Shown: positions 8,769 to 17,483, counted from the first letter of the stretch. The stretch is DNA of 50,359 nt from an uncultured Candidatus Poseidoniales archaeon (GCA_964586945.1 CAZPJQ010000002.1:1-50359), one strand, 5' to 3'. A program made the numbers and translations. Notes: generated by a model not told the origin, from the sequence alone.

Positions 8769-9413
8769 ATGATGGGGCGATTCAAGAGAGCGTATCTCAG
8801 ATTCCGCTATCGGAACAGCCCATTCCCTGGGTCTGCAGAATATTGGGAAAGAAGGTACGCCACCGGGGGCACCTCTGGAGATGGTTCCTATGGTGAATTG
8901 GCTAAGTTCAAGGCGAAGGTCATCAACGACTTCGTCACTAACCAGAGGGTTGGTGGTGTGATAGAACTCGGTTGTGGTGATGGAAATCAACTAAGCTTGT
9001 TGAAAATCCCACGGTACCTTGGATTGGATGTTTCAGAAACCGCTGTCGAAATTTGTGAAAAGATATTTAGCGGGGATGAGACAAAAACATTCAGGCATTA
9101 TTCTCCTAGTGACTATGAGGGTGAATCACTAGCTGAACTTGCGTTGTCGCTTGATATCATCTTCCATCTTGTGGAAGATGAGATTTTTCACACCTACATG
9201 ACACATCTCTTCCAAATGGCTAGTGATTGGGTCATCATTTACTCAAGCGACTCGGAAGAGCCGTTTGGTGACGGTACCGTACATTGTCGAAATAGGAAAT
9301 TCACAAGTTGGGTTGAAGATAATGTGAATGGGTGGGAATTCGACGAAAAGATAGACAACATCTATCCTGATCAATCGGTAGCAGACTTCTACATCTACAA
9401 GAAGAGGGCGTGA
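8769..9413 (+). CDS. class I SAM-dependent methyltransferase
   Basis: Motif I VIELGCGDGNQLSLL followed by LGLDVSETAV. The gene is visibly AT-richer than its flanks. Confidence 0.75.
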   Translation: MMGRFKRAYLRFRYRNSPFPGSAEYWERRYATGGTSGDGSYGELAKFKAKVINDFVTNQRVGGVIELGCGDGNQLSLLKIPRYLGLDVSETAVEICEKIFSGDETKTFRHYSPSDYEGESLAELALSLDIIFHLVEDEIFHTYMTHLFQMASDWVIIYSSDSEEPFGDGTVHCRNRKFTSWVEDNVNGWEFDEKIDNIYPDQSVADFYIYKKRA

Positions 9414-9477
9414 CTAGCATGGCCTCCCACATATTGGGGGTGAAACGCTGACTGCTCGCCCGGTTTGGTCAGAAGCC

Positions 9478-11523
9478 TTGCGCCACCACTGGGGTGAAAC
9501 TGCATCGAGCCATTGGATATCGACTCTCGATGGATTCGAGGCACGATTCGGTAAGGCTCTGCTCTGGGCTGTAGAGGTGCCTGGGCGAGTCTGTATTTTG
9601 GGTGACCATTCTGATTATGTTCCGTATTTGCGGGCGAACATCATCACTTTCGCATCGGATAACCAACGAATGAGGGCTTTGGTTTCGCCTCGAGATGATG
9701 GCCGGATCCGAATCGCTAGTTCCCTTGATGGCTGTGAGTTGACGGAATTCGAAATTGAAGGGGAACGATATGATGGTGATTGGTTAGATGGACTTGACGA
9801 AAGAGGTGCTCCCGATTCGCACTGGTCAAATTATGTCAGGGGGGCTGTCGCACACACACAATCACTGAATGAACTCAGATTCGGGTTCGATATGTTTGTC
9901 GATTCGGCCATCCCCCCCGCCTCTGGATCATCATCATCATCCGCACTCACCTTGTGCTCACTCCTAGCCACCCACCTTTCCAATGGCCTAACTTGGGATA
10001 GAGAGAATTTGGCTAGAATGGGGGGGCGCGCGGAATGGTATGTTGGTACACGCGGGGGGATGATGGACCACGCTACGATGGTTTACGCTGAAGATGGAAG
10101 TATGTTGAATCTGCAATTCCGCCCCTTTGGGGTGATGTCAATACCAGACCTACCAAGTGAATTTTGTTGGTATAGCAAATTTACCCACCCGGCAGACAAA
10201 GGCGGTCCGATGTTGGCAGCATTCAACGAACTCGCCTTCGTCCAACAGAAGCTGATACCTTCGTCTCTCGATGAAGTAGGGTTTCAACATCCGAGAGATC
10301 AATCAGAATGGGAAGTTGTAGAGAACAATCTGGATGAGTATTTTGAATACCCCGAGATGGGGGTGCTGAGAGTACGGGATCGCTTTCGGTATGTGATGAA
10401 GGAATATCAGAGAGTAATTGATTTCGAACGGGCACTTGCGAGTTCGGACATGACAACGATTGGAAGGCTACTCAATGAGGCCTGGGGAGATACTCGTGAC
10501 TTGTTGGGAACTCACACACCCATGATGGAGGAGGAAGCGGCGCGTCTCAAGAAAATTGAGGGGGTGGTCGGAGTCAAGGTATTGGGTGCGGGGTTCGGGG
10601 GTAATCTGTTGATTCTTGCGAAAGCGGGGGTTGACCTTGGTGTAGGTGTTGTCTGCCAAACTCCTGGGAAGGGTGTTTCGATTCTTGACATGAACGAAGA
10701 TGTTCGTCCACCCAACACCCGGTGCGCCGCGGTTCTACTTTGTGGAGGGAAGGGGAGTAGGATGGTCTCGCAAGGAATTGATGTACACAAACCATTGATT
10801 CCAATATCGGAAATTCCTTCCCTAATTCGCGTGTTGAATCAACTCAATGGTTGCGGAATTGACTTCTCCACTCGAATAGTTGTAGTGCCACCAAACAGAG
10901 TCGAAGAATACGAAGTGGTGTTGAAAGGGATGAATTGCTCAGTCGTCGCTCAACCAAATGCCCTTGGAACTGGAGATGCTGTTCATTGTACTCTGAATGC
11001 AATACCGGAGGATGTCGAGCATGTCTATGTCTCATTCGGGACCCAGCCGTTGGTGCAGAATGAATCCGTGCTCGCATCGCTCAAACATCACATCGATAAC
11101 CACCTAGGTTTCACACTTCCCACGACAATTACCCCAAACCCCTACGCGCCGTTGATTCGGGGTGTTGGTGGTAAAGTGACGGATTCGGTCGAAACGCATC
11201 TCGAAGGTGTTGAGAAACCATCAGTTGGTGAAGCGAACATAGGGGCATACTGGGTATCGGTGTCTGCGCTTAAGCAGGTCTTGGTGCCACTCGTTGAATC
11301 CAAGTGGAACGGAGAAGGCTACGACACCACTTCTGGTGAGTTGGGGTTCCCAAATGAGATGGTCCGAGCGTGCCTAGAAGCGGGCGTCGGTGTAGATGGA
11401 TTCCCCTGCGCTGAACCTAGTGAAATGATTGGGATCAAACGAATCGAGGATGTTGCCATAGTCGAGAGAGAGTATGAAAGGCGAACCCGGTGGGCAGCGG
11501 GTGGTCAGACCAGTGAGTTGTAG
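9478..11523 (+). CDS. fusion protein: galactokinase-like GHMP sugar kinase (N-terminal) plus sugar-1-phosphate nucleotidyltransferase (C-terminal)
   Basis: N-terminal half has the galactokinase signature PGRVCILGDHSDYV and the GHMP motif PPASGSSSSSALTLCS. From about residue 415 (nt ~10720) come NTP-transferase motifs AAVLLCGGKGSRM..KPL and QPNALGTGDAV. The start is TTG, with no in-frame ATG nearby. Confidence 0.8.
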   Translation: MRHHWGETASSHWISTLDGFEARFGKALLWAVEVPGRVCILGDHSDYVPYLRANIITFASDNQRMRALVSPRDDGRIRIASSLDGCELTEFEIEGERYDGDWLDGLDERGAPDSHWSNYVRGAVAHTQSLNELRFGFDMFVDSAIPPASGSSSSSALTLCSLLATHLSNGLTWDRENLARMGGRAEWYVGTRGGMMDHATMVYAEDGSMLNLQFRPFGVMSIPDLPSEFCWYSKFTHPADKGGPMLAAFNELAFVQQKLIPSSLDEVGFQHPRDQSEWEVVENNLDEYFEYPEMGVLRVRDRFRYVMKEYQRVIDFERALASSDMTTIGRLLNEAWGDTRDLLGTHTPMMEEEAARLKKIEGVVGVKVLGAGFGGNLLILAKAGVDLGVGVVCQTPGKGVSILDMNEDVRPPNTRCAAVLLCGGKGSRMVSQGIDVHKPLIPISEIPSLIRVLNQLNGCGIDFSTRIVVVPPNRVEEYEVVLKGMNCSVVAQPNALGTGDAVHCTLNAIPEDVEHVYVSFGTQPLVQNESVLASLKHHIDNHLGFTLPTTITPNPYAPLIRGVGGKVTDSVETHLEGVEKPSVGEANIGAYWVSVSALKQVLVPLVESKWNGEGYDTTSGELGFPNEMVRACLEAGVGVDGFPCAEPSEMIGIKRIEDVAIVEREYERRTRWAAGGQTSEL

Positions 11524-12680
11524 ATGGTGAGTAACTGCTCTCTGATTATCTCCTTCGTGTATCGTTCTTCGACACCCGCGCGCATCGCTGAGAAATCCCA
11601 TTGATGTGAACGGGCCTCGTTCATGGATGAAGCAAGTCCAGACACATCGTCCACGGCTACTAGAATGCCGTCCTGTTCGCGAACTATGTCATTTGGGCCG
11701 CCACAACGGGTTGCCACTACGGGCCTACCACTCGCTAGTGATTCAACCAATACTATCCCGAAAGTTTCGTATCTACTAGGGTGAACGAAGGCGTTGATTC
11801 CTTGGAAGAAATTCGGTGCTTCTTCCCTTGGTATTGTGCCGAGGAATGATACTCGATTTGAGAGGCCTAACTCGGAAGCTAAATTCTCAAGGCCCCCACG
11901 CAATGGCCCGTCACCTGCTAACTGAAGTGTACCCCCATCGACTGACGCGAAAGCGCGCAGAAGCGTTTCGTGGCCTTTGTCGGCGACCATGTTCGCCATG
12001 TAGCCCCAAATGAACTCATCATCTTGGCGCTGTGGAGTCAATGGAAAGTTACCGATGTCTATCATGTTGGGAACCAAAGTGAATAATTCCTGGGGGATGC
12101 CTAGAATCCGATCCAAGTCCTCTGAGAGAGAATTGCTTACCGACGCTAGATATGACGCTGAATCGAGTGTTTTTGATGCTGTCATCCGTTCACGGGGTCC
12201 CGCAATGCCTCTGGCAAAGATGCTGGCGCCAACGGTGACAACCCACGGAATTCCTTCCCGCTCAGCGATGGCTCTCGCGAGAATCGCCCCCCACATCGTG
12301 CACTTTGCGTGGATGATGTCCGGCTTTCCGTTGACTTCAGAATATGCATCATACATCTTCAGTGCGAGTCGCTCTCTCTGTCTAACCGCAGCTCGATAGA
12401 CCGGTGGGATCCGTTGCAATGGACCGGGTTGCCTCATCCGTTGAACAGCGCGCACGACTGTAAGGCCGTTCTCAACTCTTACTTGGACACCATGAGTTGT
12501 TCCACCAAACCACCTCTTCGAGGGCAAATCGATAAACTGGGCGTACAAGACTCCTACCTTGTGACCCACCTCCTCAAACATCTCAGCCTGTTCTTGGAAG
12601 AATGTGCCCAAAAGTGGGGCCTCGTCACTCGGATACCATGACGGTACGAACAGAATGTGTAGTCGGCTCAAGCCACTCAC
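11505..12680 (-). CDS. GT4-family (GT-B) glycosyltransferase
   Basis: C-terminal signature FVHPSRYETFGIVLVESLASGRPVVATRCGGPNDIV and N-terminus ILFVPSWYP. GTG start. It overlaps the convergent kinase/NT gene by 19 nt. Confidence 0.85.
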   Translation of the reverse strand: MSGLSRLHILFVPSWYPSDEAPLLGTFFQEQAEMFEEVGHKVGVLYAQFIDLPSKRWFGGTTHGVQVRVENGLTVVRAVQRMRQPGPLQRIPPVYRAAVRQRERLALKMYDAYSEVNGKPDIIHAKCTMWGAILARAIAEREGIPWVVTVGASIFARGIAGPRERMTASKTLDSASYLASVSNSLSEDLDRILGIPQELFTLVPNMIDIGNFPLTPQRQDDEFIWGYMANMVADKGHETLLRAFASVDGGTLQLAGDGPLRGGLENLASELGLSNRVSFLGTIPREEAPNFFQGINAFVHPSRYETFGIVLVESLASGRPVVATRCGGPNDIVREQDGILVAVDDVSGLASSMNEARSHQWDFSAMRAGVEERYTKEIIREQLLTIYNSLV

Positions 12681-13045: not shown

Positions 13046-15208
13046 ATGGGGCTTGAAGTGGACATGGGTTCAAGCTCCGCACCCCTCGCATTGGCGCTCC
13101 TGCTCATGTTTTCTCTCGCTTCTACCCTCCCCGCGCCTACGGGCGCGCTTGGGAACGGGTTTTCGAACGAGGGGGTGTCTAACGAGGGGACTGGAAGCAC
13201 GCAAGAAGATGAACAGGGTGTGGATTACGCTCAATTTGAGGGCAGCTTGGCTTCGGGCAGAAACTCCGTCGCCGCCTCGATCAGCCAACATGGTGAACTG
13301 GACGGACATCCAGCGTGGCTGCTCGGAATCGACGGTACTGGGGTCATCATCGCCAGCGCCGACTCTGGAATCGACCGCGACCACGCCTGCTTCCGTGATG
13401 CGACAGAACCTGGGGCATCTGGTAGTGAATGGAACAATGCCACCGGCACTCCTGGAGTTGCGCATCGGAAAATCCTCTTCCTCGACGAATCAATCGACAA
13501 TTGGGATAGCCAAGGTCACGAGCATTTCACCCACGGGACCCATGTGGCGGGAAGTCTGGTCTGTAGGTCGGTCTACGAGCAAGCGGCCGAGGATGTGGAG
13601 GATTGGCTGAACGCAACACCGGGTGAGGGGACTTCTCTTTCTCACGGCGCAAAACTGGTCTTCACGGATGTTGTTGGGGATGATGGGTGGGTGGTCCCGG
13701 AACCTTCGGTTCTGTTCACCACCGCGGCCGAAAACGGGGCGGTTATTCGCTCAGACTCCTGGGGGGATGCGACCACTGACTATACTGAAAGAACACGCCA
13801 ATTCGACTCGTGGCTCCACTCCGTTCCATGGGCCCTCTCGATAGTCGCCCCGGGAAACACCGGCAACGAGGTGCAAGAGCCTGCCAACGGATTCAATGTC
13901 GTCTCAGTTGGAGTCGCCAAGAAGGATGGTAGTGATGACCTCTGGATGTTGACACCACACTCACCTACTGCCCAAGGTCGGCAGGGGGTGGAATTCGTGG
14001 TCCCTGGAGTTTCGATAGTATCGGCCACATCTGATGGTGAGCATAATTCGTACAATGATGGGTGGAAGAGCAACTCCGGTAGTTCGATGGCCGCCCCTCA
14101 AGCGGCTGCTGCTGCTGCGTTGGTTCAACAGATGGTACAGGGTGGTTGGATCGCAGGTGGTGATGAACGGTTTGTGGTGGTTTTGAATCGGCCGGGCTGG
14201 GCGACTGTAGTCGACGAGAACCTGAGTGATGGGGAGTTACTCCTTGCAGAAGGCTTCACCCCCTCTGGCTCTCTCCTGCGGGCGCTCCTCTCCTTGAGTG
14301 CTGAATCGATAGAGGGGGGCAGACAAGGTAGCATCGTGCTTGGCCCGGGGCCCGATGACTCGCAGGGTTGGGGACTCGTCAACCTCTCCAGACTGGTCGA
14401 CTTCACCGGGGTCGGGGATTCTCTTGGGGATGAGCCTCTTGACCCGGCCCCAAATATCTGGATTCATGACTCCTTCCGACTCAAAGATGACAACTGGCAG
14501 GAGGTCGTAGCGTCGTGGCTCGATGGTGAGGCTAATTCAGCTGCTGCTCTGCAAGAAAATGAGTGGCGGGGTGAGGGTGCTGAAGGACCATTTCTTAGCA
14601 ATGGTGAATCACAGTCATGGCTCATGCCGTTAGTGCCTGGTGAGGATTTTGAGGTGAGGTTGGCTTGGACATCGACCCCTCATCCAAATCTCGACGATCT
14701 GGACCTTGTCGTTGAGGTAGATGGTGAATGGTATCATGGGAACCAATTCGACGGTTGGAACAGCAGCGCCTCAGAAGAACTTGGTTTAGGACAACAGAAC
14801 AGTACTTTGGAGGGTGTTCGAATCTCCGCAGAACGGTTGGTCGGAATTGAGAGCGTGACGGTCACGGTCAAGGCGGTCAGTGTGGTGGAATCCTCACGAT
14901 TGGGAGTGGTCGGTATGAATGGTGATAGTGTTGGGTTTGCTCTTGCGGTAAAGGGTGTTCTGAGCGCTGATGTGAGGCCTGAATCTAGTTGGGAGGTTGG
15001 GCCTAATGTTGTTGGAGATGGAGAGGTGAGTAGTCTTTGGCCACTCTTCATCGCTGTCCTCTTGATAGGGGTCGCAGTAGTCATAGAAGTGGGTTGGACT
15101 CGAGGGGTGACTGTCGAGGAGGCCGGAGTGACTAAAGGTCAACCTTCAAACCCTCAAGGGGTCTCGCTGTCCTCAGCGGTAGCACCGCACACAGGTGAAG
15201 AAGAATGA
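13046..15208 (+). CDS. subtilisin-like serine protease (peptidase S8), secreted and C-terminally membrane-anchored
   Basis: Signal peptide APLALALLLMFSLASTLPA. Catalytic triad contexts IIASADSGIDRDH (Asp), HGTHVAGS (His) and SGSSMAAPQAAAAAALV (Ser). A C-terminal TM helix LWPLFIAVLLIGVAVVIEVGW is followed by a ~40-aa tail. The start may be 13064. Confidence 0.9.
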   Translation: MGLEVDMGSSSAPLALALLLMFSLASTLPAPTGALGNGFSNEGVSNEGTGSTQEDEQGVDYAQFEGSLASGRNSVAASISQHGELDGHPAWLLGIDGTGVIIASADSGIDRDHACFRDATEPGASGSEWNNATGTPGVAHRKILFLDESIDNWDSQGHEHFTHGTHVAGSLVCRSVYEQAAEDVEDWLNATPGEGTSLSHGAKLVFTDVVGDDGWVVPEPSVLFTTAAENGAVIRSDSWGDATTDYTERTRQFDSWLHSVPWALSIVAPGNTGNEVQEPANGFNVVSVGVAKKDGSDDLWMLTPHSPTAQGRQGVEFVVPGVSIVSATSDGEHNSYNDGWKSNSGSSMAAPQAAAAAALVQQMVQGGWIAGGDERFVVVLNRPGWATVVDENLSDGELLLAEGFTPSGSLLRALLSLSAESIEGGRQGSIVLGPGPDDSQGWGLVNLSRLVDFTGVGDSLGDEPLDPAPNIWIHDSFRLKDDNWQEVVASWLDGEANSAAALQENEWRGEGAEGPFLSNGESQSWLMPLVPGEDFEVRLAWTSTPHPNLDDLDLVVEVDGEWYHGNQFDGWNSSASEELGLGQQNSTLEGVRISAERLVGIESVTVTVKAVSVVESSRLGVVGMNGDSVGFALAVKGVLSADVRPESSWEVGPNVVGDGEVSSLWPLFIAVLLIGVAVVIEVGWTRGVTVEEAGVTKGQPSNPQGVSLSSAVAPHTGEEE

Positions 15209-16209
15209 GCGAGCGACTATATCTCGGAATCGATTTGGGAACCTTCCAAAGCACGATTTCAGCATCTAATGGAGAAGTACACACGGTGGAAACCGTGGTT
15301 GGAAAGCCGAAGGACCCGATTGCGAGGAACTTCTTGAAGAGAGATACTCTGTTCGGTTCGGAAGCTCTGAAGAACAAACTCGCCTGCAACCTATACCACC
15401 CACTGGCGGCTGGTGTTGCACAGGATGACGAGAATAACCTCGCCGCGGCGAAGTCGTTCGTTACCCACCTGGTCGAAACGGTCGACCCGGAAGAGTTCGA
15501 TGAGGTGTTTGGTGTGATTTGCTCACCCTCACACATCTCATTCGTGGACAAGAGCAATCTCGTTAGCATTCTACGCGGTCAGGTCAATGCAATCATGGTC
15601 GTCAGTGAGCCGTTTGCAGTAGCCTTCGGACTTGATGAGATAGGTGGTTCCATTGTCGTCGACATAGGTGCGGGAACCACAGACATCGCCCGAGTCTACG
15701 GAACCTTCCCAAGTGAAGAAGACCAGGACACTGTATCTGAAGCTGGAGACTGGATTGACGAGCGACTCATGGAGCTCGTTGCCAAGAAGTACACTGGTGC
15801 GCAACTCACCAAGGATATGGTGCGACGCTGGAAGGAGGATGGTTCCTATGTTGGCGGTGATGTTCGAGAGCAAATGGTCGAACTTTCAGTGGATGGTAAG
15901 AAACAGGTTGTCGATGTTGGCGACCTCGTACAGATTGCATGTGAGGAGTTGATTCCACACATGGTTGGTGCGATTAAGCGAATTGTTTCATCTGCAGATC
16001 CGGAGTACCAACCAATCCTACGCAACAACATCATCCTCTCAGGGGGGGGTTCTCTAATCGATGGCATCTCCGATAGGATAGCTGATGAGTTGGCTGACAT
16101 AGGGGATGTACGTGTTTGGTGCTGCGACGAGCCCATCGTTCGTGTCGCTGATGGTGCTCTAAAACTGTCAATGGTCATGCCAGATGACCAATACACAGCC
16201 ATCAGTTAA
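15205..16209 (+). CDS. actin-family ATPase, MamK-like (MreB/MamK clade)
   Basis: Actin-fold motifs: LGIDLGTFQS (phosphate 1), VVSEPFAVAFGL..IVVDIGAGTTDI (phosphate 2) and ILSGGGSLIDG (adenosine). Several strings match MamK as I remember it (VVGKPKD, YHPLAAGV, PSEEDQDTVSEAGDWIDERL, IACEELIPHMV, PEYQ). AGGTGA lies 7 nt upstream, and the ATG overlaps the protease stop (ATGA). Confidence 0.85.
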   Translation: MSERLYLGIDLGTFQSTISASNGEVHTVETVVGKPKDPIARNFLKRDTLFGSEALKNKLACNLYHPLAAGVAQDDENNLAAAKSFVTHLVETVDPEEFDEVFGVICSPSHISFVDKSNLVSILRGQVNAIMVVSEPFAVAFGLDEIGGSIVVDIGAGTTDIARVYGTFPSEEDQDTVSEAGDWIDERLMELVAKKYTGAQLTKDMVRRWKEDGSYVGGDVREQMVELSVDGKKQVVDVGDLVQIACEELIPHMVGAIKRIVSSADPEYQPILRNNIILSGGGSLIDGISDRIADELADIGDVRVWCCDEPIVRVADGALKLSMVMPDDQYTAIS

Positions 16210-16222
16210 ACGCCGATTCCGG

Positions 16223-16240
16223 CAGACCCTAGGGGGTCTG
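16223..16240 (+). other. perfect 7-bp stem / 4-nt loop hairpin just after the actin-like gene's stop codon
   Basis: CAGACCC-TAGG-GGGTCTG begins 14 nt after the TAA at 16207-16209. No T-tract follows, so it is not a classical archaeal terminator; it could be an RNA processing or stability element. Confidence 0.3.
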
Positions 16241-16316
16241 TAGAAAGGCCTTACCACCCCGTTGGCTAGCGCAGGGTTCAAGAATGGTATTGCGCCGATA
16301 GGATTGTTGATTGAGT

Positions 16317-17483
16317 ATGGCGACCCCCTCCACCTCCTCTGAATCGAGCAACGGGGCCGGTGACATGGACCGTGCTGCTCTGTCTGGAATGTTGTCCTCA
16401 TATGACTCCAAGCAACTGGTTGACGAGGTCATTACTGCATGGGAGGAGTTGGCGGCGGCCAACAAGGACCTCGCCACATCAAGCCAACGAAACCGCGTTC
16501 TCGAGCTCGACCTCGCGGAGAGAGATGAGTTGGGTGTCCCTGAGCGCGCTCGTCTACTCAAAATGGAGGAAGATATGCGCGAGAGGGAAGCGCGTATTAT
16601 CCATCTTGAGAGAATGTTGGATGAGGTACGGCGTGAGAAAGAGGGTGTTGAGAACTCGGTTGGGGCGATTCGGGTTGACGATCTTGAGAGGAACAATGCT
16701 GAACTCTCAGAGAGAAGTGAGTCTCAGGCAACGATGATTTCCGAAATGGAGGGTAAGTTGGACCAATTGGTTGACGCGTTAGAGAAAGCTGCGGAAGCTG
16801 GCCTCACTTCAATCACTGCTGACGAGGTTCGCACCTTGAACAGAGAACTTGAAGAGGCTCATCGAAGAATTGAGACAGAACAGTCTGAGAGTAACGCAGT
16901 TGGGGGTGAGCGTGACCAGTTGCGTGAGATGGTTGAACAGACCGGGAGTCTGCTCGAACAGCGAGATCTTCGAATAAAGGAGATGGAAGGGCAACTTCAG
17001 AGAATCATGGAAGGGCCCCGCTCAATCTCTGCAGAGCATGACTACCTAGTGGAGCAAATCGAGGAGTTGAAGCGCCGCCTTCTTGAGCGGAATCGTGAGT
17101 ATGAGGCTCTGCGCCGACGGGAGAGAAGACTACACAGAGAGGTATTCGAGCGGGATGAGAGAATCCAACAGATGCAATTGACGATGTCGGATATCGAAGG
17201 TGGTCTGTCAGACCGTACCGCGGAGATGAAGACGCTTGAAGAGAGTCACGAGCGCTTGTTGGCTGAAGTGGAAGGACTTCGCCGTTCAGAGAGAACGAGG
17301 GAAGTGGTCAGTGGAGCATTCCAAGACACTCTTGGAGTTCTTCGCTCCCATGAACAACGCAAAGCACGGCGCGAGGCGTTGGGAATCGAGGAAGATGATT
17401 CGATTCCTGAACCCGGAGATGGTAATATGCCTGGAGGAACAGCACCAGCGGCCTTGCGTGACATCGATGAATTGGATGAATGA
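16317..17483 (+). CDS. long coiled-coil protein (hypothetical; E/R/L-rich heptad-like sequence throughout)
   Basis: About 390 aa that is almost entirely charged/Leu-rich helix-former sequence (e.g. RNREYEALRRRERRLHREVFERDERIQQMQL). It has an S/T-rich N-terminus and an acidic C-terminal peptide LRDIDELDE. No enzymatic motif. The track start at 16311 is TTG; an ATG lies at 16317. Confidence 0.7.
   Translation: MATPSTSSESSNGAGDMDRAALSGMLSSYDSKQLVDEVITAWEELAAANKDLATSSQRNRVLELDLAERDELGVPERARLLKMEEDMREREARIIHLERMLDEVRREKEGVENSVGAIRVDDLERNNAELSERSESQATMISEMEGKLDQLVDALEKAAEAGLTSITADEVRTLNRELEEAHRRIETEQSESNAVGGERDQLREMVEQTGSLLEQRDLRIKEMEGQLQRIMEGPRSISAEHDYLVEQIEELKRRLLERNREYEALRRRERRLHREVFERDERIQQMQLTMSDIEGGLSDRTAEMKTLEESHERLLAEVEGLRRSERTREVVSGAFQDTLGVLRSHEQRKARREALGIEEDDSIPEPGDGNMPGGTAPAALRDIDELDE

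Follow-up and report, generated by a model that had tools for sequence, protein, structure and literature searches.

We analysed a 50,359-nucleotide (nt) stretch of DNA from an uncultured Candidatus Poseidoniales archaeon (GCA_964586945.1, CAZPJQ010000002.1:1-50359; "the window" below means this whole stretch, with positions counted from its first letter) and found that it encodes an actin which belongs to the MamK-like family, has a MamK-type fold and is a core gene of the order Poseidoniales, three points that we assert jointly and with little doubt. With more reserve, we favour a fuller reading in which this core Poseidoniales gene encodes a MamK-like, filament-forming actin that has a coiled-coil protein as its partner. 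A preliminary description, made by reading the sequence alone, had placed a protein of 334 amino acids (aa) with the motifs of an actin at 15205-16209, and we recovered it there as an open reading frame (ORF) that starts with ATG and ends with TAA:

15205 to 16209, plus strand: MamK-like actin, Poseidoniales paralogue 1 (P1), 334 aa, identified from the ORF and from hidden Markov model (HMM), PDB and fold matches to MamK.

Against the NCBIfam models, MamK was the top match (335.2 bits, E = 3.9e-100, residues 5-332), followed by BeeR at 202.6 bits, MreB at 65.7 (TIGR00904) and 79.1 (PRK13927), salactin at 40.1, ParM at 16.4, crenactin at 14, FtsA at 13 and DnaK at 14-17. In Pfam, MreB_Mbl was the sole family spanning the whole protein (79.9 bits, above its gathering score); the salactin family PF25229 gave 33.8 bits, which is over its gathering score and far under MreB_Mbl and MamK, and across Pfam and NCBIfam together FtsA reached 13-16 bits and Hsp70/DnaK 14-21 bits. 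The preliminary description had judged by eye that the protein follows MamK more closely than the archaeal actins, and the scores agree with that judgement (335 bits for MamK vs 40 for salactin, 14 for crenactin and 66-79 for MreB). Two outcomes that it had named as counter-evidence, a best match to an Hsp70/DnaK, FtsA/PilM or sugar-kinase family and a place inside ordinary archaeal MreB, did not occur. All the motif strings that it had quoted are present in the protein, including LGIDLGT, PEYQ and ILSGGGSLIDG, and their MamK counterparts can be read in the HMMER alignment to 5jyg/5ljv (VVGKPKD opposite VVGYPKD, VVSEPFAVAFGLDEIGGSIVVDIGAGTTDI opposite VVSEPFMVGYGLDKLINTIIVDIGAGTTDI, EDQDTVSEAGDWIDERL opposite EDQVTLTKAGNYVDERL, and IACEELIPHMV opposite IACEALMPDII).

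The same order of relatives emerged from solved structures. A HMMER search against the PDB returned MamK (5jyg, 5ljv, 5ljw) with an E-value of 6.5e-65 over residues 3-328 of the window actin, then BeeR (2.7e-34) and MreB (about 1e-13), and identity is 36% with the MamK of M. magneticum and 26% with MreB. We then modelled the protein with AlphaFold2 (AF2) from a 43-sequence alignment (pLDDT 91.8, pTM 0.88) and compared the model with 350,542 PDB chains using Foldseek. The top match was the MamK filament subunit 5ljv_A (template modelling (TM) score 0.93/0.96, root-mean-square deviation 1.5 Å over 324 columns), with BeeR at a TM score of 0.89 and MreB and eukaryotic actins at about 0.80. Sequence and fold both put MamK first and BeeR second. 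Among the MamK chains the model is nearest to the filament conformation (TM score 0.93 vs 0.85 and 0.75 for the two chains of the monomeric crystal). P1 is a cytoplasmic protein in which an N-terminal extension is absent, the first β-strand of the model beginning at residue 4.

The residues of the nucleotide-binding site are intact in the window actin, namely the phosphate-1 motif DxGT, the catalytic Glu of SEPF, the phosphate-2 motif DxGxGTT and the adenosine motif GGG, and the 43-sequence alignment shows no variation at D10, G12, T13, E135, D153, G155, G157, T158, G280 and G281. HMMER aligns E135 and D153 with E143 and D161 of MamK, which we take to be the positions of MamK ATPase mutants. 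From these intact residues we predict that the protein hydrolyses ATP, and it probably polymerises into filaments. A non-polymerising ATPase of the actin fold, such as an Hsp70-like chaperone, a sugar kinase or a protein of the EutJ or FtsA/PilM type, would account for the weak HSP70, EutJ and FtsA matches, and would fit a second Poseidoniales paralogue described below (P2), which has Asp at the position of MamK A278, where the change A278D abolishes polymerisation; the window actin has Pro there. Those families score 13-22 bits vs 335 for MamK, the AF2 model is nearest to the subunit of MamK in its filament state, and MamK, BeeR and saltatorellin all form filaments, so that we regard a non-polymerising protein as extremely unlikely.

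We next describe how the gene is distributed. The closest 120 homologues listed are 74-98% identical to the window actin and come from metagenomes and metagenome-assembled genomes (MAGs) named Poseidoniales, Poseidoniaceae, Thalassarchaeaceae or Marine Group II (MGII), names that fit the planktonic euryarchaeon proposed earlier as the host. A scan of the GTDB species genomes confirmed at least 515 relatives, and the best 80 of these are all P1-type loci, 79 of them with archaeal titles, mostly Poseidoniales, and one of the 80 on the closed MG-II chromosome CM001443.1. Two records call for separate mention. The 4-kb contig L081 (DLTU01000102.1), the one of the 80 with a non-archaeal title, carries a typical Poseidoniaceae pair of actin and coiled-coil genes and is filed under 'Candidatus Microthrix', a MAG into which it was probably mis-binned, and the MAG ARS60 (NYZH01; L038, L043) holds two separate P1 loci that are 76% identical to the window, which reflects either a mixed bin or a recent duplication.

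Nearly all the named proteins among these 120 homologues are labelled "rod shape-determining protein MreB" by NCBI and JGI. Taken at face value the label would make P1 an archaeal MreB, that is, a membrane-associated rod-shape determinant guiding envelope synthesis, and the MreB_Mbl match (79.9 bits, over the gathering score) points the same way, as does the plausibility of a cell-shape role for an archaeal actin, for which volactin is a precedent. The MreB models give only 66-79 bits, vs cutoffs of 293-515, where MamK gives 335; the TM score to MreB is about 0.80 vs 0.93-0.96 for MamK, and the window actin has no N-terminal amphipathic helix. Among the roughly 30 window ORFs annotated with Pfam, we found no mreC, mreD or rodZ, no peptidoglycan-synthesis genes and no Mam-type families; these ORFs comprise only housekeeping genes, in line with the earlier remark that no magnetosome genes are nearby. 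The name itself has a simple explanation, since the archaeal members tested score 321-375 bits with the NCBIfam MamK model (NF040964), just below its curated cutoff of 400 bits, and so receive the MreB label. We hold an MreB of this kind to be highly unlikely.

We searched for the wider family exhaustively among representatives of 50%-identity clusters, which yielded 119 clusters at E <= 1e-30. The nearest after the MGII cluster are proteins of 520-1230 aa with 41-45% identity, in which the actin domain is C-terminal and follows a coiled-coil head at the N-terminus and an extended linker of low complexity; the closest named ones come from candidate division KSB1. NCBI already names relatives in KSB1, Planctomycetota, a Firmicute and Nitrospira "MamK family actin-like protein", and further relatives occur in Verrucomicrobiota, Acidobacteriota, Gemmatimonadota and archaea of the anaerobic methanotrophic group ANME-2/Methanosarcinales. 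A neighbour-joining (NJ) tree, with MreB as its outgroup, was built from an alignment of 80 sequences (336 columns) and bootstrapped 200 times; it recovered P1 and P2 with 100% support each and P1+P2 together with 86%. KSB1 was the sister of MGII with 57% support, wider groupings received at most 20%, and BeeR and the ANME-2 proteins formed separate groups. The MamK core clade, consisting of AMB-1 MamK, a MamK-like protein of P. magneticum and the database protein P0160, had 91% support and left MGII outside. Scores with NF040964 were 321-335 bits for P1, 366-375 for P2, 371 for the ANME-2 protein, 416-432 for non-magnetotactic bacterial proteins and 508 for P0160, which clusters with AMB-1 MamK. 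Judged by these scores and this tree, the window actin is a divergent member of a broad MamK-like radiation, distinct from magnetosome MamK. The preliminary description had assigned it to the MamK clade; that assignment stands as far as the MamK-like best match goes, and fails in that the tree excludes the protein from the magnetosome MamK clade and its score is under the NCBIfam cutoff. Since this radiation is mostly non-magnetotactic, the lack of magnetosome genes around the window actin is expected and presents no paradox, and since most of the radiation is bacterial, the ancestral Poseidoniales gene would have been acquired horizontally from bacteria.

The actin is also the most conserved gene of its locus. 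Median identity between the window and 53 distant Poseidoniales lineages is 75% for the actin, compared with 58% for FtsY, 56% for geranylgeranylglyceryl phosphate (GGGP) synthase, 51% for the coiled-coil protein, 48% for ribosomal protein L18A, 41% for the S8 peptidase encoded upstream of the actin and 32% for prefoldin. A polymer, with a surface made up mostly of interfaces, would be expected to show such conservation above that of its housekeeping neighbours.

The candidate partner is encoded by the gene that follows:

16317 to 17483, plus strand: MGII coiled-coil protein, candidate actin partner, 388 aa counted from the ATG at 16317, identified from its AF2 model and from synteny.

The ORF as called mechanically begins at a TTG at 16311, and the database protein P0410 is 100% identical to the 388-aa product. 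The AF2 model consists of three long helices (31-162, 168-231 and 237-355) between disordered termini, with invariant residues in the two short breaks that separate the helices, and the protein would measure about 45 nm if fully extended. It is at least 47% identical throughout the order, with a near-invariant core at about residues 225-295, and its top 120 database matches are all from MGII. We found no transmembrane segment, Pfam match or PDB match for it. All 76 loci have the gene downstream of the actin, 71 of them immediately so at first count; five loci that had seemed to lack it do carry it, preceded by small inserted genes. These inserts (L046, L048, L054, L057 and L070) comprise one to three genes between the actin and the coiled-coil gene and encode small membrane proteins, a putative secreted cupredoxin of about 175 aa with conserved His/Cys residues and, in L048, a 395-aa ORF. 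We also considered whether the MGII coiled-coil protein and the N-terminal extensions of the KSB1 actins are homologous in the manner of a Rosetta-stone pair, and rejected this on hmmsearch scores of about 0. By analogy with MamK and its adaptors, the coiled-coil protein could be the partner of the actin, a possibility that we consider evenly balanced.

Conserved elements upstream of the two genes tie them together further. On the plus strand of the window the relevant features are:

15137 to 15149, plus strand: actin upstream element, GGTCAACCTTCAA, 68 nt before the actin ATG and inside the 3' end of the S8 gene.

15176 to 15188 and 15194 to 15198, plus strand: short inverted repeat, GCGGTagcACCGC, and the Shine-Dalgarno (SD)-like GGTGA, both upstream of the actin ATG.

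16273 to 16302, plus strand: coiled-coil upstream element, AGGGTTCAAGAATGGT...CGATAGG, of the same palindrome family and with a GG centre.

We aligned the 120 nt 5' of the actin ATG from 75 P1 loci. The motif GGT[G/C]AACCTT[G/C]AA at -68 to -61 is exact in 62 of the 75, and it is kept whether the region is intergenic or, as in the lineage of the window, read through by the S8 gene. The palindromic core reads TGAA/TCAA-CC-TTCA in the window, which contains a single copy of the motif; of the 66 copies counted over about 800 kb of loci, 65 lie at that position. Upstream of the coiled-coil gene, the motif G[G/T][G/A]AA[A/G]GTTCAAG lies about 40-45 nt 5' of the ATG in 70 of 74 loci and is followed by conserved blocks; the copy in the window is AGGGTTCAAG (16273-16282). 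Both elements share the palindrome TGAA-NN-TTCA as a common core, with CC at the centre before the actin gene and GG before the coiled-coil gene. When 765 kb of loci were scanned on both strands with a regular expression for the family, matches fell upstream of the actin (54), upstream of the coiled-coil gene (60) and elsewhere (17, mostly AT-rich look-alikes); there was none upstream of S8 or of the P2 actin. The window itself contains no match, as both of its copies depart from the expression, compared with 0.37 matches per shuffled window. The shared element thus links the actin to the coiled-coil gene specifically, to the exclusion of S8.

From its palindromic form in the alignments, TGAA-NN-TTCA is a probable operator for a dimeric regulator. 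An RNA-level role found little support, which is why we favour a DNA operator: we rejected a structured leader RNA on the 5' side of the actin gene (median z -0.39 for folding of the whole leader, and only a 3-bp helix with RNAalifold), the element and leader had no match in Rfam, and a 5-bp stem specified by hand showed 91% pairing in the MGIIa-type alignment, with compensatory changes in two of five pairs, a weak signal. The GGTGA SD sequence is invariant in the upstream alignments. One further feature lies between the two genes:

16223 to 16240, plus strand: GC-rich inverted repeat, CAGACCCtagGGGGTCTG, 14 nt past the actin stop.

Folding of the 55 nt that begin at the actin stop gave -10 kcal/mol or below at 59 of 72 loci, a count made without comparison to shuffled sequence, and T-runs are rare. 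The repeat may be a terminator or an element of transcript ends or stability that separates the levels of the actin and coiled-coil products.

An actin followed by an adaptor gene is also the design of ParMR, and the pair could accordingly be read as a DNA-partitioning system of the ParM or salactin type in which the coiled-coil protein is the adaptor to chromosomal or plasmid DNA. Salactin is itself an archaeal actin with MamK as its nearest subfamily and is linked to DNA partitioning, and JGI labels some coiled-coil homologues 'chromosome segregation ATPase'. That label is generic, however, and no DNA-binding or ATPase domain is detectable in the coiled-coil protein; the window actin scores only 40 bits with salactin and 16 with ParM, the motifs are single promoter-proximal palindromes with no centromere-like repeat array seen, and the locus is chromosomal, with housekeeping genes on either side. 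We consider partitioning of this type unlikely.

Upstream, the actin is adjoined by a peptidase gene:

13046 to 15208, plus strand: S8 (subtilisin-type) peptidase, membrane-anchored and secreted, identified with Pfam Peptidase_S8.

Its translation shows a signal-like N-terminus, one C-terminal transmembrane segment and the D/H/S motifs. The gene lies directly upstream of the actin in 69 of the 69 loci with enough sequence, within an arrangement found throughout the order: L18A on the minus strand, then S8 peptidase, actin and coiled-coil protein on the plus strand, then GGGP synthase (PcrB) on the minus strand. In the window the S8 stop codon overlaps the actin start (ATGA). The S8 ORF of this lineage runs through the actin upstream element and SD (15125-15208), and its last 24 or so residues are KGQPSNPQGVSLSSAVAPHTGEEE; in most other lineages S8 ends 45-220 nt upstream of the actin. 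The tail and the ATGA overlap are therefore shaped by nucleotide constraint, the actin's upstream element and SD being what encodes them. We had considered the acidic-tipped cytoplasmic tail of S8 as a binding motif and rejected this, the window tail being encoded by the actin element and the others being short or unrelated. Synteny was likewise downgraded as proof of an operon of S8, actin and coiled-coil genes, given that the whole block is syntenic throughout the order.

These observations bear on a third alternative, a tripartite envelope module of S8, actin and coiled-coil protein in which the filament would be tethered via the cytoplasmic tail of S8. It would make sense of the unbroken position of S8 immediately upstream on the same strand, of the ATGA overlap in the window, and of S8 being a single-pass membrane protein with an acidic-tipped tail of 23-41 aa in many lineages. 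The positions of L18A and PcrB are equally conserved, though, and S8 lacks the shared cis-element; the tails are non-homologous between lineages and only 7-9 aa long in several, while in the window the tail and the overlap are by-products of the constraint on the actin element and SD. S8 is moreover the least constrained of the three proteins (41%), and its likely role is extracellular proteolysis. We judge such a module distinctly unlikely, and S8 is probably a conserved neighbour with no functional partnership.

The remaining genes of the window include those for FtsY, prefoldin, L18A, GGGP synthase, a β-CASP RNase, MoeA, UvrA, PurL, PurQ and PurH, together with a thermosome, peptidases and sugar-modifying enzymes. 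At 8769-12680 three extra genes, encoding a methyltransferase-like protein, a fused GHMP-kinase/nucleotidyltransferase and a glycosyltransferase of the GT4 type, separate prefoldin from L18A, the two being adjacent in the other Poseidoniales loci inspected (L001-L004); this looks like a lineage-specific insertion for glycan modification.

The second MGII clade, P2, consists of proteins of 340-345 aa that are 45-49% identical to P1 (48% between the groups). P2 sits at a different conserved locus (L007-L009, L093-L114, L125) beside mevalonate-pathway genes, in the order thiolase, one or two proteins with no Pfam match, and actin. This locus has no S8 gene, coiled-coil gene or shared cis-element, and Pfam and PDB searches of the P2 neighbours returned nothing informative; in L007, one of the proteins with no Pfam match beside the P2 actin has zinc-ribbon-like Cys motifs at both ends. 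P1 and P2 must be paralogues, because both are labelled Poseidoniaceae while P1 alone is at least 74% identical throughout the order, and the monophyly of P1+P2 points to a gene duplication either inside the order or at its base. At the position of MamK A278, P2 proteins (P0369 and others) have Asp (PEYQD), the window actin has Pro (PEYQP) and KSB1 proteins have Gln. The solved MamK mutant A278D (5ljw) is non-polymerising; the Asp of P2 may nevertheless be meaningless, the site being variable across the family.

Several loci of more distant relatives were also inspected. In the KSB1 MAG GCA_016927835.1 (L090, 3755-10076), the gene for a fused MamK-like actin of 707 aa precedes that for a MamK-like actin of 345 aa; three Roadblock/LC7 genes, one of which encodes a PatA_N domain, and a gene for a small Ras/Arf-like GTPase come next, an arrangement that may represent an actin plus a polarity module of the MglA/MglB type. 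Related fused actins are up to 1232 aa long and have a coiled-coil head and an extended linker rich in Pro, Glu, Ala and Lys. The ANME-2 MAG GCA_019429385.1 (L092, 6001-12925) encodes a MamK-like actin (371 bits) that is labelled MreB, and the gene directly after it encodes a protein of 1940 aa that matches no Pfam family; ANME-2/Methanosarcinales is a second, independent archaeal lineage of MamK-like actins. A Planctomycetota relative has a putative coiled-coil gene upstream of its MamK-like actin. These neighbourhoods recall the way in which MamK is accompanied by adaptor genes.

Among characterised systems, the best match of P1 by HMM, sequence and fold is MamK itself, with which it shares its length class, the ATPase residues and the lack of an N-terminal extension. 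The filaments of MamK are two-stranded and non-staggered. The proposed pairing of a filament with a lineage-specific adaptor encoded alongside would be a further likeness. MamK relies on fast-evolving adjacent adaptors, namely MamJ and the product of a MamJ-like gene immediately upstream of mamK-II, and the signature genes of magnetosomes are mamABIMQ (PMC10653835); in deep-branching magnetotactic bacteria, coiled-coil Mad proteins interact with MamK (PMC12748827). The window actin differs in being archaeal, in having no magnetosome cluster around it and in having as its neighbour an unrelated coiled-coil protein, not MamJ. Its nearest relatives are the non-magnetotactic bacterial members of the MamK family (39-45% identity), which are likewise unlinked to magnetosomes and often adjoin coiled-coil or large domain-less proteins. 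These bacterial proteins pass the NF040964 cutoff (416-432 bits) whereas the window actin fails it, and many KSB1 members have an N-terminal extension of 190-900 aa and Roadblock/LC7 and Ras-like GTPase neighbours, of which the window actin has neither.

BeeR, from Verrucomicrobiota, shares 25-30% identity with MamK and assembles into a tube of three strands (PDB 8r2n; PMC11929497). It resembles the window actin in being MamK-related and non-magnetotactic and is the second-best match by HMM, PDB and fold, but the window actin scores 202.6 bits vs a BeeR cutoff of 530 and lacks the disordered N-terminal domain of 30-50 aa found in BeeR (PMC11929497). Saltatorellin of Saltatorellota is MamK-like, forms filaments in E. 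coli and Magnetospirillum and has a proposed cytoskeletal or shape role. Compared by description, it too is a MamK-like actin of a non-magnetotactic host, and it differs in being bacterial, from the Planctomycetes-Verrucomicrobia-Chlamydiae (PVC) superphylum; the Planctomycetota clade of our tree is its likely home. Salactin, from Methanotecta archaea including Haloarchaea, was found by its authors to have MamK as its closest subfamily, and so shows that MamK-related actins exist in Euryarchaeota. With the salactin model (NF053533) the window actin gives 40.1 bits vs a cutoff of 400, and it lacks the long charged N-terminal tail of salactin; the MGII actin resembles MamK far more than it does salactin. 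MreB shares the actin fold and the MreB_Mbl match from which the database name comes, but differs in identity (26%), in TM score (about 0.80), in model scores (66-79 bits vs cutoffs of 365.75 for TIGR00904 and 293 for PRK13927), in its N-terminal amphipathic helix and in its mreC/mreD/rodZ context. ParM and Alp actins differ in score (16.4 bits), and the window actin differs from them in having a neighbour with no DNA-binding domain and a chromosomal housekeeping context.

We infer a mechanism in which the cytoplasmic, ATP-hydrolysing actin would form a filament and, by analogy with MamK and its adaptors, the filament would work with the coiled-coil protein encoded immediately downstream, through contact between the two. 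A common dimeric regulator, presumably a transcription factor, would act on the TGAA-NN-TTCA site before both genes. The cargo, or cellular role, may be cell shape or envelope organisation, or else the positioning or partitioning of a cellular component. P1 and P2 would derive from a duplication inside Poseidoniales, and their ancestor from bacteria, the nearest being KSB1 and other non-magnetotactic phyla. A more far-reaching version, which we put forward tentatively and regard as doubtful, is that Poseidoniales run a dedicated MamK-type cytoskeleton of two ancient paralogous filaments, one of them with an order-specific coiled-coil adaptor and a private operator. Such a cytoskeleton might be the main machinery of shape, positioning or segregation in cells where we saw no MreB or crenactin, and an analogue of the positioning of organelles by MamK and its adaptors, with a cargo other than the magnetosome and perhaps an undescribed structure.

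Several observations weigh against the reading of a MamK-like filament with a coiled-coil partner, or against parts of it. The window actin scores under the NF040964 cutoff (335 vs 400 bits). As a crude method, the NJ tree has weakly supported deep nodes, so that the donor lineage and the direction of transfer are uncertain. L18A and PcrB are kept in place in 32 of 32 full loci, and since they are as constant as the genes between them, the adjacency of S8, actin and coiled-coil genes is by itself weak evidence; in one Thalassarchaeum-like subclade, moreover, unrelated small genes lie between the actin and the coiled-coil gene. The cis-element could be a feature of the RNA or of the promoter rather than an operator, and with a hairpin after the actin stop and separate upstream elements, co-transcription of the pair is not required. 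We found P1 and P2 together at the level of one metagenome assembly (ERZ23487353); the GTDB genome scan returned P1 alone, and the P2 MAG prefixes PBTA01 and DACK01 have no counterpart in the P1 list.

The preliminary description had taken such an actin in a planktonic euryarchaeon-like genome to point to an uncharacterised cytoskeletal function. We found no paper in open-access PMC or bioRxiv that links MamK to Marine Group II or Poseidoniales or discusses their "MreB". Precedents for the wider idea exist in BeeR, saltatorellin and salactin, and because these are already published, the surprise is smaller than had been implied; P1 adds a new archaeal clade within the already known MamK-like actins. 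Most of the family is non-magnetotactic, and it extends into at least two archaeal lineages (MGII and ANME-2). Its archaeal members have been systematically mis-annotated, hidden under the "MreB" label by the cutoff of a curated HMM, and the use of mamK as a marker for magnetotactic organisms is risky, as surveys could catch non-magnetotactic relatives. Marine Group II archaea reach very high abundance in surface seawater but are uncultured, and their cell biology is essentially unknown; for these archaea our results offer a concrete, testable cytoskeletal module, made up of an actin, a candidate coiled-coil partner, a second paralogue and a shared putative regulatory site.

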